Origin: Patescibacteria group bacterium
Lineage (GTDB): Bacteria; Patescibacteriota; Minisyncoccia; Phycocordibacterales; Phycocordibacteraceae
Assembly: GCA_040384705.1 (NCBI GenBank)
Contig: JAZKIU010000001.1
Span: 295,675 to 338,025, forward strand
DNA length: 42,351 nucleotides
Direction: 5' to 3'
Position numbers and translations under genes: made by a program. Below, piece by piece: positions 15,677 to 18,894 of this stretch. The stretch's first letter is position 1. Every line of letters starts with the position of its first letter. The notes beneath the pieces were generated by a model that was not told the origin of the DNA, made no database searches, and saw only the letters and a program-made list of their open reading frames with translations.

Positions 15677-16945
15677 CTATTTCTTGTGGCGACGGAGGAA
15701 GCTTGGAATAGCTCCCCAAGCCTCGTCCTCTTCTTCCTCGGCCTTGGGCGGAGTAAGCGGCTTCGCCTCTTCGCGCTTCTGCGGCTGGGCGGTGACGACC
15801 GGTTCCCGTCGCTCCTCGCGGACGGACTCGTCCTCGATGGTGACCACCGGAACTGCTACCTCCTCGGCTGCAGGCTGCGGGCGCTTCATGATGTCATTGA
15901 AGATGCTCCCACGAGCCTCCTGCTGCTCTTCTGCGGGCATGGCGAAGAGGGAACGCTCGATACCGCCTTGGGTGCCTTCGCCTTCGCCCTCGGGGAAGCC
16001 GGTGGCGATGACAATGATGCGGATCTGGCCCTTCTTGAGCTTCTCGTCGCGCATGATACCGAAGATGACCTTCGCGTTCTTATCGACCGAATCCGAGACG
16101 ACCTTCGCGGCCTCCTGGACCTCGAGGATACCGAGGTCGTCGGAACCTGCGACTACGAAGAGCACGCCCTTGGCGCCCGTGATGGAGACATCGAGGAGCG
16201 GGGAATTGACGGCCTGCGCGGCAGCGTCCTGCGCACGGCGATCCCCATCCGCGATACCGATGCCCATAAGTGCGGGACCTGCACCCTCCATGATGGCCTT
16301 AATGTCGTTGAAGTCTGTGTTGATCTCTCCTGGCGTAGTGATGATATCCGAGACACCTTCGACCGCTTGGCGGAGTATCTCATCGGCGAGCGCGAACGCG
16401 CTTGAGGCGGTGGTCTGCGCTTCGACGATGGAGAGGAGCTTGTCGTTCGGGATGACGATGAACGCATCGACTTCCTTCTTGAGCTCGGCGAGACCGCGGT
16501 CGGCGATTTCTTTGCGCTGAAGACCCTCGAATGTGAATGGCTTGGTGACAACGGCAACGGTGAGTGCGCCGAGCTCCTTCGCTATCTTAGCGACGGTAGG
16601 GGCAGCACCGGTTCCGGTGCCTCCGCCCATGCCGCAGGTGATGAACACCATGTCGGAACCCTGGAGCGCCTCCTGTATCTCCTGGCGGGTCTCCTCGGCA
16701 GCGCGGCGTCCGAGGTCGGGGTTCATGCCGGCGCCGAGTCCCTTGGTGAGGTTCTTGCCGATATGGATTTTCTTCTTCGCTAGAGAACGGTGAAGGTCCT
16801 GGGCGTCCGTGTTAACGGCGATGAACTCAACGCCCTTCACCTTGGAGTTGATCATGTGGTTCACGGCGTTGCAGCCGGAACCTCCGGTTCCTACGACGCG
16901 GATGCGGGCGAACGTCTCTATCTCTGGGTCTACGCGCTTTGACAT
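15677..16945 (-). CDS. ftsZ: cell division protein FtsZ
   Basis: GGGTGTG tubulin signature, NTDAQ, GLGAG, C-terminal IPSFLRR. Confidence 0.98.
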   Translation of the reverse strand: MSKRVDPEIETFARIRVVGTGGSGCNAVNHMINSKVKGVEFIAVNTDAQDLHRSLAKKKIHIGKNLTKGLGAGMNPDLGRRAAEETRQEIQEALQGSDMVFITCGMGGGTGTGAAPTVAKIAKELGALTVAVVTKPFTFEGLQRKEIADRGLAELKKEVDAFIVIPNDKLLSIVEAQTTASSAFALADEILRQAVEGVSDIITTPGEINTDFNDIKAIMEGAGPALMGIGIADGDRRAQDAAAQAVNSPLLDVSITGAKGVLFVVAGSDDLGILEVQEAAKVVSDSVDKNAKVIFGIMRDEKLKKGQIRIIVIATGFPEGEGEGTQGGIERSLFAMPAEEQQEARGSIFNDIMKRPQPAAEEVAVPVVTIEDESVREERREPVVTAQPQKREEAKPLTPPKAEEEEDEAWGAIPSFLRRHKK

Positions 16946-17179
16946 AAGGGGGATCTAGGGGCCGGTAATAACTGGGGCAATAATACCAGCTGCGACCGGC
17001 TTGCAAATAGTGACTTTTTTTTCAGGCGTGCTGTGCTTGTGTCGTGGAATTTGCGTTTTATTCTGTTTCTGTCGTAGAAAACTCTTCATTTACATCATAT
17101 ATGGACGTACTAGCCATAAAAGAAGAGGCGACGCCGGAGCGCCGCCTTAGAGGTCGATGGATCTTGTTCGTGGTTGTGC

Positions 17180-17617
17180 CTAGCGGGCGCGCTTGATCGA
17201 GGAGTCGTCCTCGGACGGTTCGTTCAGCGAGCGGGTCAGGGTCAGGACCGCCATGCGGTGCTGGGGCAGAAGGCCGGCGAAGGCCTCGAGCAGTTGCACG
17301 GCGCCGGGGATGGCCAGCTTCGCGTTCAGGCTCTCGTCGCCGTTCGGAGCGCCGTTCTCTCCGACCAGTTCGCCCACCGAGGTGTCGAGCTTCTGAGCGA
17401 TTTTCACCAACATGGAGGCGGAGACGCGATTGGCGCCGCGCTCGTACTTCTGGACTTGCTGGAACGAGACGCCCAGATGATCCGCGAGGGTGCTCTGGCT
17501 GATGCCGAGCCACTTCCGGCGAACGCGGATGCTGTGGCCGACGGCCACATCGATGGGGTCGGGGGTATTGTCGTTCTCGTGGCTGGTAGCAACCACGCGG
17601 CTAGGTTGAGACATCAT
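17180..17617 (-). CDS. XRE-family helix-turn-helix transcriptional regulator, alphaproteobacterial type
   Basis: PDPIDVAVGHSIRVRRKWLGISQSTLADHLGVSFQQVQKYERGANRVSASML; own promoter TTGCTT-N16-TATAAT; start placed at MMSQP. Confidence 0.9.
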   Translation of the reverse strand: MMSQPSRVVATSHENDNTPDPIDVAVGHSIRVRRKWLGISQSTLADHLGVSFQQVQKYERGANRVSASMLVKIAQKLDTSVGELVGENGAPNGDESLNAKLAIPGAVQLLEAFAGLLPQHRMAVLTLTRSLNEPSEDDSSIKRAR

Positions 17618-17727
17618 TTCTACGCCCTTGCATTCTGAATGGAAGATAGGCAGAGGAATCGAACACGAACCTCTAGCGAGGATTATACACACTAATATAG
17701 AAAAAGCAAGAGGTACTAGCTCCCGTG

Positions 17728-18894
17728 CTACGGAAGAAACTGACGGAAGAATCCCTGCAGTCCGTTGAAGATGTCCTTTGCGCTCCGTTTCTTGGGGCTG
17801 GTCTCCGTGTCCCCGGTGAGCCCCCAGAGCGCAAGGCCGTACGCGACCGCCCAGGTGGCGTCACGGACCTTCACATCGGTCGTGAGGCGCATGTCAGCGA
17901 TGCGCGAAGGGAGATTGAGCGTACCCTTGGCGATATCGGTGATGAGGCCCTGGCCCGCGCCTCCTCCCGAGATGATGACGCCCGCCGGGAGCGTGCGGCC
18001 GCGACCGAGCTGCTTCAGATGCTTATCGATCAAATCGAAGATCATGCGGAAGCGAGAGGTGATTATCTCCTCCACCTTGCGGCGCGGGTACATGCTGCCC
18101 GAAAGCCGGCCGAGCTTGAGGCGCTCCGCGTCCTCGAGCGATACCTTGAACCCGAGCGCGAGGTCGTCGGTGATATGCGACGACCCTAGTGGGAACACCT
18201 TCACGGAAACAGGAAGCCCTTCGTCATACACGACTATGGAAACGGTCTCAGAACCGATGTTCGCGAGTACGCAGCCCTTCATCTTCTGGTCCTTGGTGAG
18301 GGTGACGTACGAACCAGCAAGAGGGGACGCCATGCGGTCGATGACCTCGATATCTGCGGATTCGGTCACGCTCTCAAGGAGGTCCGCATGCTGCGAGAGG
18401 CATGTTATGAAAAGATAGTCGGCTTCGAGACGCGTGCCCTTCATGCCTACCGGTTCGCCGAGCGACTTGGAACCATCTACCCGGAACTCAAGCGGTATCT
18501 CATGGAGGACGGTGCGGTTAAGGAAGTTAGGGGAGGCAGCCTGGCGCGCGGTCTCTCGCGTCTTCTCGATATCGAGCTCGGTTATCTCCTGGTCGGCGCG
18601 TGAGATAACCGTCTCGCCCTGAGCGCGCACCTCGTCGAGGCTAATCCCGCCAATGGCGAGGAACCCGCGCTTCACCGGCACCCCCGCTACCTGCTCTGCC
18701 TGCTCGCGTGCGGCCCGTATGCTCGCTGCCGCGTCCTCCGGGTCCACTACGTACCCGTGGCGCAGCCCACGGGTCTCTGCGAGGCCGGTACCGATGATGC
18801 GGAGGATGGGGCCCTCGGGCGTACGCACCTCCTCGACCACCACCACTTTCGTGTGGTGGGTGCCGATATCAATGCCGGTGGCGATGCGTCGCAT
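17728..18894 (-). CDS. ftsA: cell division protein FtsA
   Basis: GIDIGT, GLRHG.VVD, NIGSET, G...ITDDLA, AERLK, GVIISGGGA; near ftsZ. Confidence 0.93.
   Translation of the reverse strand: MRRIATGIDIGTHHTKVVVVEEVRTPEGPILRIIGTGLAETRGLRHGYVVDPEDAAASIRAAREQAEQVAGVPVKRGFLAIGGISLDEVRAQGETVISRADQEITELDIEKTRETARQAASPNFLNRTVLHEIPLEFRVDGSKSLGEPVGMKGTRLEADYLFITCLSQHADLLESVTESADIEVIDRMASPLAGSYVTLTKDQKMKGCVLANIGSETVSIVVYDEGLPVSVKVFPLGSSHITDDLALGFKVSLEDAERLKLGRLSGSMYPRRKVEEIITSRFRMIFDLIDKHLKQLGRGRTLPAGVIISGGGAGQGLITDIAKGTLNLPSRIADMRLTTDVKVRDATWAVAYGLALWGLTGDTETSPKKRSAKDIFNGLQGFFRQFLP

Follow-up and report, generated by a model that had tools for sequence, protein, structure and literature searches.

The window, i.e. 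the whole 42,351-nt stretch of Patescibacteria DNA that we analyzed, carries the division genes ftsA and ftsZ on its reverse strand, and the interval 16946-17727 (782 bp) corresponds exactly to the spacer between them. Within this spacer lies a gene for a 145-residue XRE-type regulator, P0001, so that the pair is split by an extra gene, as an earlier note on this DNA had described (Table 1). The gene starts with ATGATG and is the sole credible ORF of the spacer; the other frames of at least 60 aa in the ORF list overlap it. Pfam identified ftsA, ftsZ, ybeY and a thioredoxin-reductase-like gene in the flanks. At gathering thresholds Rfam gave no match in this spacer or in the spacers of seven relatives. 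The genome of a sister species (G212) has the identical ftsA-XRE-ftsZ order as the window genome (G000), and the two differ little in the flanking proteins, with amino-acid identities of 98.7% for ftsA (90.5% in DNA over 718 aligned bases) and 99.3% for ftsZ.

Table 1. Features of the ftsA-XRE-ftsZ locus, in window coordinates.
Feature	Position	Strand	Basis or detail
ftsA, 388 aa, upstream flank	17728..18894	-	Pfam FtsA 3.8e-22 and SHS2_FTSA
Weak terminator-like hairpin just past the ftsA stop codon	17707..17725	-	6 pairs, then CTTTTTCTAT
TATAAT -10 box of the putative XRE promoter, AT-rich, native-looking	17682..17687	-	Sequence reading
tRNA-T-arm-like inverted repeat in the XRE leader, AGAGG..TTCGATT..CCTCT	17651..17676	-	Sequence comparison
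XRE/HTH_3 regulator gene, PraR/CdxA/RtrA family, 145 aa (P0001)	17180..17617 (including stop codon)	-	ORF, Pfam, tree
Hyper-divergent 5' part of the XRE gene, codons 1-35	17513..17617	-	62.9% DNA identity to G212
Intrinsic terminator of the XRE gene	17116..17147	-	9-pair stem, loop of 4, then CTTCTTTTAT
Native ftsZ promoter block, ACAGCACG..GTCACTATTTGCA..16 nt..TGGTATTAT	16946..17040	-	Scan and relatives
ftsZ, 422 aa, downstream flank	15677..16945	-	Pfam Tubulin 1.2e-50 and FtsZ_C

We consider it likely that the XRE gene is an independent transcription unit. As read from the sequence, an AT-rich promoter of native type with a perfect TATAAT would lead into a conserved leader, followed by the coding sequence and an intrinsic terminator. 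The promoter previously ascribed to the gene holds in part: the TATAAT is perfect and is also kept in G212, but the consensus scan called no two-hexamer promoter at this position, because the -35 is weak. The upstream region is unlike the GC-rich one of the Phenylobacterium-like homolog at L006, the closest of the homologous loci. The downstream hairpin proposed earlier was recovered as a stem at 17147-17126 (reverse strand) with seven G-C pairs, which is present in the minimum-free-energy fold and is retained in G212 with compensating changes. Of the weaker hairpin that follows ftsA, G212 lacks 11 nt. The T-arm-like leader repeat is identical in the two genomes, bears a weak likeness to the 3' half of tRNA-Gly and occurs, at up to three mismatches, in no genome of the 222 in the genus other than G000 and G212; it was rejected as a repeat family. 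Membership of the gene in the cassette array bounded by TAGGTTCGATACCTAGTCTGCCAGC was also rejected. This repeat bounds tRNA-Gln-mimic cassettes at six places on contig C1, with one opposite-strand variant, and is absent from the spacer; the leader piece differs from it in sequence.

Beyond the terminator, ftsZ has its own promoter, TTTGCA-16-TATTAT with TG before the -10, and the separate extended -10 noted before lies at 16980-16988 (reverse strand). The promoter block is identical in G000 and G212 (95/95 positions). Its architecture is common to relatives without the XRE gene, and the 100 nt before ftsZ contain TTTGC[AG] in 28 and TGGTAT in 25 of 30 loci of the genus.

A check of both junctions by spanning sequence had been called for. 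Contigs from run X1 bridge the two XRE junctions at depths of 575-655, contigs from X2 and X3, runs of other studies, bridge ftsZ-XRE and ftsZ-XRE-ftsA, and six contigs show a member of the sister cluster. It is therefore hardly credible that the locus reflects a chimeric assembly or binning error, or alternatively an old CPR gene lost elsewhere. Run X1 does show extra depth over 17365-17546, from similar HTH segments of other organisms that could in principle seed a chimera. However, contig depth is equal across both junctions, the arrangement recurs in the genome of an independent species as well as in the runs of two other studies, and the gene sits on a 640 kb contig. An old, vertically inherited gene is contradicted by the tree and by the AU test, which reject a single CPR clade (p 4.5e-17).

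P0001 matches HTH_3 (PF01381, E 1.2e-13, residues 30-84), and the pattern PDPIDVAVG..IR.RRK.LG.SQ..LA..LGVSFQQVQKYERGANRVSASML...LAIPGAVQLL.AF quoted in the earlier note is found in its translation. Its profile matches the 434 and P22 c2 repressors in the PDB. The AF2 monomer (mean pLDDT 87.2) places the HTH helices at residues 21-85 and three C-terminal helices at 95-132, the latter with pLDDT of about 89-95. Foldseek returned HTH proteins only, e.g. C.BclI, ClgR and SinR, with no structural match for the C-terminal helices. In a 40-sequence alignment of the family, P0001 carries all 18 invariant and all 16 nearly invariant columns, among them F52, Q53, Q54, Q56, K57, Y58, E59, N63, R64 and R121. 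It also carries the subfamily signature P-[DN]-P-[IV]-D..G.R[IV]R.RR...G.SQ..L....G..FQQ[VI]QKYE.G.NR...S.L plus a conserved arginine in the C-terminal helix, a signature that is our own reading of this alignment and not a published definition. Together with its placement among alphaproteobacterial members in the trees, these sequence features support the earlier subfamily assignment and put P0001 in the PraR/CdxA/RtrA-RtrB/TgrL branch of XRE regulators, which is alphaproteobacterial. Two other identities were rejected. A prophage repressor of the CI/RstR type reached 54.8 bits with RstR against a cut-off of 80, and the flanks show no prophage context; as for a type II antitoxin of the HipB, HigA or MqsA-like XRE kind, all 15 NCBIfam matches fell far under their cut-offs.

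In composition the gene departs from its surroundings. CTG accounts for 9 and CTC for 4 of its 15 leucine codons, as compared with 14% and 56% genome-wide, and the neighbors are CTC-rich (ftsA 3 CTG and 25 CTC, ftsZ 0 and 20). All six isoleucine codons are ATC and none is ATA, which makes up 29% in the genome, and GCC encodes 8 of 14 alanines (genome 23%). The GC3 of 0.862, against 0.704 +/- 0.082 for the genome, places the gene in the top 0.6% of 512 long ORFs, a level reached by 2.3% of size-matched 145-codon windows. Read from an upstream GTG, the extended frame (170 aa, CTG 10/17) shares the top CTG fraction with one other ORF when those with at least eight leucine codons are ranked (710 ORFs called). 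Counts and GC3 thus agree with the CTG/ATC/GCC-rich usage previously set against CTC/ATA-rich neighbors. The general log-RSCU score is no outlier, with 54% of genes lower or equal, so the signal resides in GC3 and in specific codons rather than in overall codon usage. Pfam gave no match for three further ORFs in the genome that are GC3/CTG outliers.

Homology searches and trees point to where the gene came from. Among 2302 homologs of P0001 the CPR sister protein is best (87%), followed by proteins of 77-80% identity, and the named proteins among the best non-CPR matches are all from Phenylobacterium (P0012, P0026, P0033, P0042 and P0058). With P0012 it shares 70 of 71 residues over positions 18-88. 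The best 80 species-genome loci are proteobacterial or unnamed, save one labelled Synechococcus; L006 has 59-70% GC in 500-nt windows and LysR, M13-peptidase and SpoU neighbors. In the tree, from which phage family members found by tblastn were left out, the window protein and that of G212 join at 100/99*, inside starred sets of 10 (95/82*) and 16 rows (96/86*), in which some rows bear the name Phenylobacterium and most bear none. A quick 172-row tree agrees with the nesting among Caulobacteraceae. As the phylogenetic check proposed in the earlier note anticipated for a transferred gene, P0001 lies outside any vertically inherited CPR clade. The gene is also rare: a close copy exists in 1 of 221 other genomes of the genus, G212, at the same place, and none of 24 genomes from other families of the order has a match at E <= 1e-5. 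Our results thus favor the transfer suggested before, with a Phenylobacterium-like donor, and we conclude that the gene was very probably acquired horizontally from Caulobacteraceae. At the DNA level the nearest Phenylobacterium-like loci agree with the gene in only 73% of positions and the true donor lies outside the sampling, so the donor genus is deduced from protein trees and from names given by the sources.

The gene in the ftsA-ftsZ slot is a lineage-specific acquisition and not a clade-wide gene. It would have arrived in the common ancestor of G000 and G212, after the split from the next relative (G157), and would have landed in the spacer upstream of the native ftsZ promoter, leaving that promoter intact. 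A plasmid or phage vector was considered and rejected. Family members are common on both (765 alphaproteobacterial plasmid records hold them) and none is close, the best identity band, 60-80%, comprising eight plasmid records and one phage record. Likewise rejected as a mobile-element boundary was an 11-nt imperfect direct repeat (17104-17114/17710-17720) around a 606-bp unit, which is absent in G212 and does not stand out from four further repeats of chance size within these 801 nt.

Comparison of the two carriers suggests that the gene is still in use. The HTH core codons of G000 and G212 differ by eight synonymous changes and one non-synonymous change; when the core is compared with Phenylobacterium-like DNA, the corresponding counts are 29 and 5. 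Between the carriers, DNA identity is 92.1% over codons 36-145, close to the flanks at 90.5-91.3%. Codons 1-35, by comparison, accumulated 15 synonymous and 13 non-synonymous differences (Fisher p 1.7e-6 vs the core). Because of the pattern in the core, the gene looks functional, and on this sequence evidence we hold that conclusion with good confidence. The C-terminal region and tails of P0001 have diverged from the donor clade, which implies that its partners may differ. A neutral passenger, i.e. environmental DNA that was inserted in a tolerant spacer, has no use and is heading to decay, would be in keeping with the presence of the gene in only 2 of 222 genomes, its location in an insertion hotspot, the lack of an identified regulatory target and the high divergence of the N-terminal tail and leader between the carriers. 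We nevertheless regard it as very unlikely, because the frame has stayed intact in two species with ~9-10% DNA divergence, the core differences are mostly synonymous, and conservation extends to the -10 box, the leader element and the terminator.

Taken as a whole, the explanation we prefer, and which we think fairly likely, is an acquired and still functional Caulobacteraceae-type transcription factor in a unit of its own. By analogy with the family, P0001 would bind DNA as a homo-oligomer through its 434/P22-repressor-like helix-turn-helix, would oligomerize through the C-terminal helices, and would chiefly repress transcription, probably that from its own promoter as well; that it is a dimeric autoregulated repressor has, in our estimate, about an even chance. 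Its DNA-reading domain is one residue off the Phenylobacterium orthologs and under purifying selection in the CPR lineage, and it should consequently recognize operators of the donor type. The search for such operators yielded none: in front of family members from Alphaproteobacteria TTGCAA has 7 copies in 16.4 kb (6/83 ORFs), an enrichment of only ~3.5-fold, and it is absent upstream of the XRE gene itself.

The earlier note had raised the possibility that the gene is kept to regulate ftsZ. According to this hypothesis P0001 controls cell division by binding the ftsZ promoter downstream of its own gene. The gene does lie directly upstream of ftsZ, and TTGCAA, the core motif of PraR in the excerpted text of PMC4149787, overlaps the ftsZ -35 (17001-17006) in both XRE carriers and is rare in the genome, with 41 copies in 640 kb. 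However, the same TTGCAA is present in three genomes without the XRE gene, and the ftsZ promoter is genus-wide, so that nothing co-varies with the XRE; TTGCAA counts and inverted repeats likewise yielded no element that separates carriers from non-carriers. Moreover, a terminator separates the two units. Among 29 loci with both genes, the ftsA-ftsZ spacer measures 91-143 bp in 17, is 248-1315 bp long with other cargo in 10, and holds the XRE in 2. The genus has made repeated use of the spacer as a permissive insertion site, and the fact that 10 of the 27 relatives without an XRE there hold varied cargo speaks against a dedicated link with ftsZ. Our results do not favor control of ftsZ, which we judge improbable.

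The regulator in the window belongs to a wider pattern. Twelve acquired-type XREs of the genus fall in at least seven places among the Caulobacteraceae XREs of the tree (AU p 4.5e-17), and they are up to 80-89% identical to proteins named as Caulobacter, Phenylobacterium or Caulobacteraceae. They have gone into a small number of reusable sites, one between ftsA and ftsZ and one upstream of rpsL, the latter filled by an XRE in six genomes of the genus and without one in G000. The genus also has its own old, syntenic member of the family, which in G000 lies at C1:531136-531450. In addition, Phenylobacterium-like PEPxxWA-CTERM proteins are encoded in these genomes, four of them in G000; exosortase was not found in the genomes with such proteins. 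One islet in G157 holds XRE and PEP-CTERM genes together. As a general co-transferred unit the combination was rejected, a PEP-CTERM tail lying within ~4 kb in only 1 of 80 alphaproteobacterial loci.

An alphaproteobacterial host of the CPR cell is a reasonable inference from these data, strengthened by the repeated captures and the PEPxxWA-CTERM genes, and shared habitat with DNA uptake would give the same pattern. A further step was the earlier suggestion of a host-manipulating mimic: a CPR epibiont of Caulobacteraceae would deliver the captured XRE to act on host operators or XRE partners, as phiCbK does with TgrL, with adhesion or GTA-lysis genes as examples of targets. The DNA-reading domain, retained despite many synonymous changes, fits such a role, as do the Phenylobacterium-like surface proteins in the same genome. 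The independent captures of Caulobacteraceae XREs parallel those by alphaproteobacterial phages (excerpted text of PMC10688885), and type IV secretion parts are reported in Patescibacteria (PMC12102498). Against this, no secretion, translocation or export signal was seen in P0001, its diverged C-terminal (oligomerization) region argues against pairing with host XREs, and with a native-type promoter it resembles an ordinary cytoplasmic regulator. XRE genes are, furthermore, very mobile in general, as the plasmid records illustrate, and the old syntenic family member makes a purely internal role plausible. We therefore regard a host mimic as unlikely. We are similarly doubtful about the broadest reading, namely that the genus lives on Caulobacteraceae (Phenylobacterium or Caulobacter) and repeatedly steals host XREs, along with PEPxxWA-CTERM surface proteins of host type, in order to disturb host programs, for example adhesion and GTA-mediated lysis, or to blend into them; the copy between ftsA and ftsZ would then be one host-directed or host-sensing factor. 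If it were true, the hosts of uncultured CPR bacteria could be read from the genes that these bacteria have captured.

Very few hosts of CPR bacteria from the environment have been established, and Phenylobacterium/Caulobacter is a concrete and testable candidate. Repeated XRE capture points to the kind of bacteria the genus lives with, and the captured proteins form a small set that could reveal how epibionts sense or handle their partners. Transfer between phyla into CPR genomes is already documented, and the XRE alone is an ordinary small regulator; the value lies in the pattern of one CPR genus capturing one alphaproteobacterial XRE subfamily at least seven times from Caulobacteraceae. The excerpted text of a 2025 mSystems paper (PMC12455944) describes a lysR gene transferred from Omnitrophota into Patescibacteria. 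Like our case, it concerns a single transcription-factor gene from another phylum in a streamlined CPR genome, and the transfer was taken as a hint of association with the donor. The difference is that the same XRE family was captured at least seven times from one bacterial family; XRE, Caulobacter and Alphaproteobacteria are each absent from the text of that paper.

Two known systems from the family itself bear on P0001. First, PraR of Rhizobium leguminosarum and Azorhizobium caulinodans represses its own gene and binds promoters with TTGCAA in common, and an anti-repressor relieves it, as given in the excerpt of PMC4149787. It is of the CdxA ortholog line, belongs to the same family as P0001 and is the source of the working model we have borrowed. 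PraR/CdxA-type proteins carry ..YFFEG.. after the HTH and occupy the other half of the tree, whereas P0001 belongs to the ..ELVGE.. branch, which within the sampled sequences is almost only Caulobacteraceae. Secondly, the members from Caulobacter and phiCbK assemble with themselves as well as with one another and act as repressors of hfiA and gafYZ, according to the excerpt of McLaughlin, Fiebig and Crosson (2023, PMC10688885), in agreement with the adhesion control and heterotypic interaction cited in the earlier note. The phage's own copy mentioned there was also found: it is annotated as a Cro/CI regulator and is 40.5% identical to P0001 over residues 15-131 (tblastn, phiCbK-type phage). 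RtrA, RtrB, CdxA and CdxB of C. crescentus and TgrL of phiCbK, as described in that excerpt, resemble P0001 in sequence motif and tree position, in size, and in an HTH followed by a short helical C-terminal part without a recognized domain. P0001 differs from all of them in residing in a CPR genome and in having as its nearest relatives a Phenylobacterium clade at ~80% identity rather than any named C. crescentus paralog. With TgrL it shares a more particular feature, in that both are copies of a Caulobacteraceae regulator carried by a non-alphaproteobacterial genome.

The 145-aa XRE regulator between ftsA and ftsZ is encoded on a contig of 640 kb in a 98% complete genome (697,541 bp in two contigs), and three lines of evidence show that the ftsA-XRE-ftsZ arrangement is real. 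First, a second species-level genome, that of the sister species G212, has the same gene order, with protein identities to the window's own genome, G000, of 98.7% (FtsA), 99.3% (FtsZ) and 87.8% (XRE). Secondly, 6 contigs on record carry a member of the 90% cluster to which the G212 XRE belongs. Thirdly, contigs of sequencing run X1 (depth 575-655) match 16038-16862, 16833-17462 and 17433-18298, with overlaps that span both junctions, although this run may be the source sample and hence not independent. Single contigs in runs of two other studies (X2 and X3) lead from ftsZ into XRE (763 nt) and through ftsZ-XRE-ftsA (1990 nt), and they carry the G212-type allele. Both junctions, flagged in the earlier note as a possible assembly chimera, are thus bridged. 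As a separate observation, depth in X1 climbs from ~575 to as much as 1685 over 17365-17546, where loose ends rich in GC occur. Closely similar HTH-coding segments are carried by other, abundant organisms of that sample, and the rise is compatible with co-occurring Caulobacteraceae but no proof of them.

The interval singled out in the earlier note, 16946..17727, is the entire ftsA-ftsZ spacer, and Pfam confirms both flanking genes. On the minus strand the order is ftsA, weak hairpin, TATAAT, inverted repeat, XRE, terminator, ftsZ promoter and ftsZ. The downstream hairpin seen previously is an intrinsic terminator, and the separate extended -10 proposed for ftsZ is present as TG plus TATTAT in a promoter called by the consensus scan. 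The claim that XRE has its own promoter stands in part: a perfect, conserved TATAAT is found, but because the scan called the ftsZ promoter only, the case for it consists of the -10 box and its conservation. The 26-mer in the XRE leader contains a duplicated TTCG, is identical in both carriers (G000 and G212) and was not found in the other 220 genomes of the genus. It was also considered as the tRNA-Gln-mimic cassette repeat of G000 and rejected, being a different sequence.

Features of the ftsA-ftsZ region in the window, and related genes elsewhere (C1, contig of the window)
Feature	Position	Strand	Remark
ftsA	17728-18894	minus	Pfam
Weak hairpin with T-run	17725-17707	minus	directly after ftsA stop
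Perfect TATAAT	17687-17682	minus	
tRNA-T-arm-like inverted repeat, 26 nt	17676-17651	minus	in XRE leader
XRE gene, 145 aa, start ATGATG	17180-17617	minus	sole credible gene in spacer
Strong intrinsic terminator of XRE	17147-17126 plus CTTCTTTTAT	minus	after coding sequence
ftsZ promoter, TTTGCA-16 nt-TATTAT	17007-16980	minus	TG before -10
ftsZ	15677-16945	minus	Pfam
PEPxxWA-CTERM-tailed protein	C1:340611-341279		G000, outside window
PEPxxWA-CTERM-tailed protein	C1:341481-342176		G000, outside window
PEPxxWA-CTERM-tailed protein (L232/L238)	C1:524242-524967		G000, outside window
PEPxxWA-CTERM-tailed protein	C1:525147-525761		G000, outside window
Distant XRE paralog (L002)	C1:531136-531450		G000
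Counterpart of distant paralog	L244 2894-3262		G157
Counterpart of distant paralog	L247		G148

A search for the origin of XRE returned 2302 homologs. After that of the sister species, the best are 77-80% identical over ~90% of the length, and wherever one of them has a name it is Phenylobacterium sp. Over residues 18-88, XRE matches the Phenylobacterium-named protein P0012 at 70 of 71 positions, one differing. Among contigs of one genome per species, the best locus (78% identity; GC 59-70% in 500-nt windows; neighbours LysR, M13 peptidase and SpoU) is followed by Caulobacteraceae, Caulobacter and Phenylobacterium loci at 53-59%, and the remainder of the best 80 loci are Alphaproteobacteria, Proteobacteria or without a name, with one labelled Synechococcus. 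Some match at E <= 1e-8 occurs in 40/222 genomes of the genus, a close match in G212 alone, and none of the 24 same-order genomes of other families matched at 1e-5. In an IQ-TREE phylogeny of 65 rows (12 of 39 Patescibacteria (CPR) rows, namely those among Caulobacteraceae, and 53 of 133 other rows, omitting a 17-row CPR-only clade and long-branch rows), the window and G212 sequences are joined at 100/99 within starred groups (10 and 16 rows) that hold Phenylobacterium-named proteins. A quick 172-row tree gives the same placement, so that the nesting proposed earlier as the mark of horizontal transfer is recovered in two trees. Composition agrees with an outside origin: GC is 0.653 and GC3 0.862 (genome GC3, 0.704 +/- 0.082), and the codon bias described from sequence alone is there, with CTG for 9/15 leucines vs 14% genome-wide, ATC 6/6 and GCC 8/14; the overall codon-likelihood score is not unusual. 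Since DNA identity to the Phenylobacterium-like loci is just 73% overall, either sampling has missed the actual donor or the transfer was not very recent.

Between G000 and G212, XRE codons 36-145 (92.1% DNA identity) have diverged like the flanking ftsA (90.5%, aligned part) and ftsZ (91.3%), and for this reason the sequences fit a single acquisition ahead of the split between the two; the ftsZ promoter block is identical at 95/95 positions. In G157, which by FtsZ comes next in relatedness (91% protein identity), the spacer is occupied by another insert, of 1315 bp, so that acquisition most simply followed the split from G157. In the HTH core, synonymous codon differences far outnumber non-synonymous ones, both between the carriers (8 vs 1) and against two Phenylobacterium-like DNAs (25-29 vs 5), which shows purifying selection on the DNA-binding part. 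Codons 1-35 are 62.9% identical between the carriers, 15 codons differing synonymously and 13 non-synonymously (Fisher p 1.7e-6 vs the core), and the ~60 nt before the start are likewise far more diverged; identity over 17513-17680 (first 35 codons plus leader) is 63-72%, vs 90-100% in the surroundings. The divergence includes synonymous changes in the conserved stretch PDPIDVAVGH.IRVRRK, and our guess is that this tract stems from a second recombination with another allele. Another variable spot is the stretch separating ftsZ from the next gene, where G212 has ~540 nt that are missing in G000.

We surveyed the spacer in 30 loci of the genus, those closest in FtsZ; both genes are included in 29. 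It measures 91-143 bp in 17/29, contains XRE in two, and is 248-1315 bp long with other content in ten (L121 in G157, L144 in G126, L124/L125 in G166/G111, L122, L123, L128, L129, L130 and L139). The cargo includes a 341-aa ORF on the opposite strand (G157), a 128-aa ORF within an AT-rich insert of 41% GC (G126), which looks PemK/MazF-like, a common conserved noncoding stretch of ~250 nt without a match in Rfam (G166 and G111), and small ORFs. The ftsZ-adjacent block is the same promoter throughout (TTTGC[AG] in 28/30 loci, TGGTAT in 25/30). Varied cargo beside a constant promoter block shows that the spacer is a tolerated landing site, an insertion hotspot, and XRE inserted upstream of the ftsZ promoter and left it untouched.

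The 14 other XRE ORFs extracted from the genus are all GC-richer than their flanks, by 5 to 18 points. The XRE of G084 is 88.6% identical to that of Caulobacter sp. SLTY and 54% to the best CPR XRE. Those of G191 and G200 share one Caulobacteraceae MAG as best outside match (83.6% and 80.5%) and have each other as best CPR match (73.5% and 75.2%); G020 matches the same MAG at 65% and its best CPR XRE at 62%. The 12 CPR rows of the 65-row tree need 7 label changes, 7 being forced by starred branches, and form one group in 0/200 bootstrap trees; the AU test rejects a single clade (p 4.5e-17), with the group set by genome of origin and the test run after the tree was seen. Six genus XREs (L096, L098, L090, L091, L093 and L087, in G191, G200, G203, G237, G231 and G217) occupy one shared slot whose flanks, an M50-type protease gene on one side and divergent rpsL-rpsG on the other, are conserved, and at least three Caulobacteraceae XRE clades have supplied its alleles; in G000 no XRE is found at rpsL, and rpsL and the M50 gene are 7.5 kb apart. 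The separate 17-row CPR-only clade holds a distant paralog of G000 (38% identical, 104 aa). In G000, G157 and G148 alike this gene has SET-domain and VanY-like genes as neighbours, and it looks like an old, vertically inherited family member.

A second Phenylobacterium signal comes from a PEP-CTERM-tailed protein of 241 aa, one of the GC3/CTG outliers of G000. None of its full-length relatives (49-58% identity) carries an organism name; relatives with names are nearly all Phenylobacterium PEPxxWA-CTERM proteins, a few being labelled Pseudomonadota. G000 encodes four proteins with such a tail, and a search with PF09721 found no exosortase in it. PEPxxWA-CTERM matches occur in 13/222 genus genomes, 8 of which by our own count also have an XRE match, an overlap that is no statistic because related genomes are not independent. 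An islet in G157 (L244 7797-10025, C10) consists of an acquired XRE and then two PEPxxWA-CTERM genes on the same strand, at GC 0.63-0.66 vs 0.53. XRE and the four PEP-CTERM genes of G000 are preceded by similar -10 regions, either GTGTGTTAnnGT or GTGTGTATAAT in form; it seems that acquired genes receive promoters of the extended -10 type native to the organism.

In conclusion, the safest account of XRE is that of a repressor which was captured and domesticated and sits at a permissive site; ftsZ regulation or host mimicry are possible roles. TTGCAA, reported as the core motif of the rhizobial relative PraR (PMC4149787), lies over the ftsZ -35 in both carriers and in 3 non-carriers, and is a lead only. 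What deserves following up is the way this genus habitually acquires regulators and surface-protein genes of Caulobacteraceae, a habit that supplies a candidate partner for these uncultured CPR bacteria. The main texts of the literature searched held no description of Caulobacteraceae gene collecting by Patescibacteria, and a term search within PMC12455944 likewise returned nothing. The translated protein bears the motif first read from the DNA and has a Cro/C1-type HTH (PF01381, E 1.2e-13); all NCBIfam matches (RstR, HipB, HigA, DicA and others) fell far under their cut-offs. AlphaFold2 (40-sequence alignment, mean pLDDT 87.2) predicts a five-helix HTH at 21-85, a linker of lower confidence and three helices at 95-132, with low confidence for the N-terminal 20 residues. 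Foldseek and a PDB profile search matched the HTH alone, to C.BclI, C.AhdI, ClgR, SinR, DdrO and the P22/434 repressors, and members of the family, according to PMC10688885, are without a recognisable C-terminal domain and make both homomers and heteromers.
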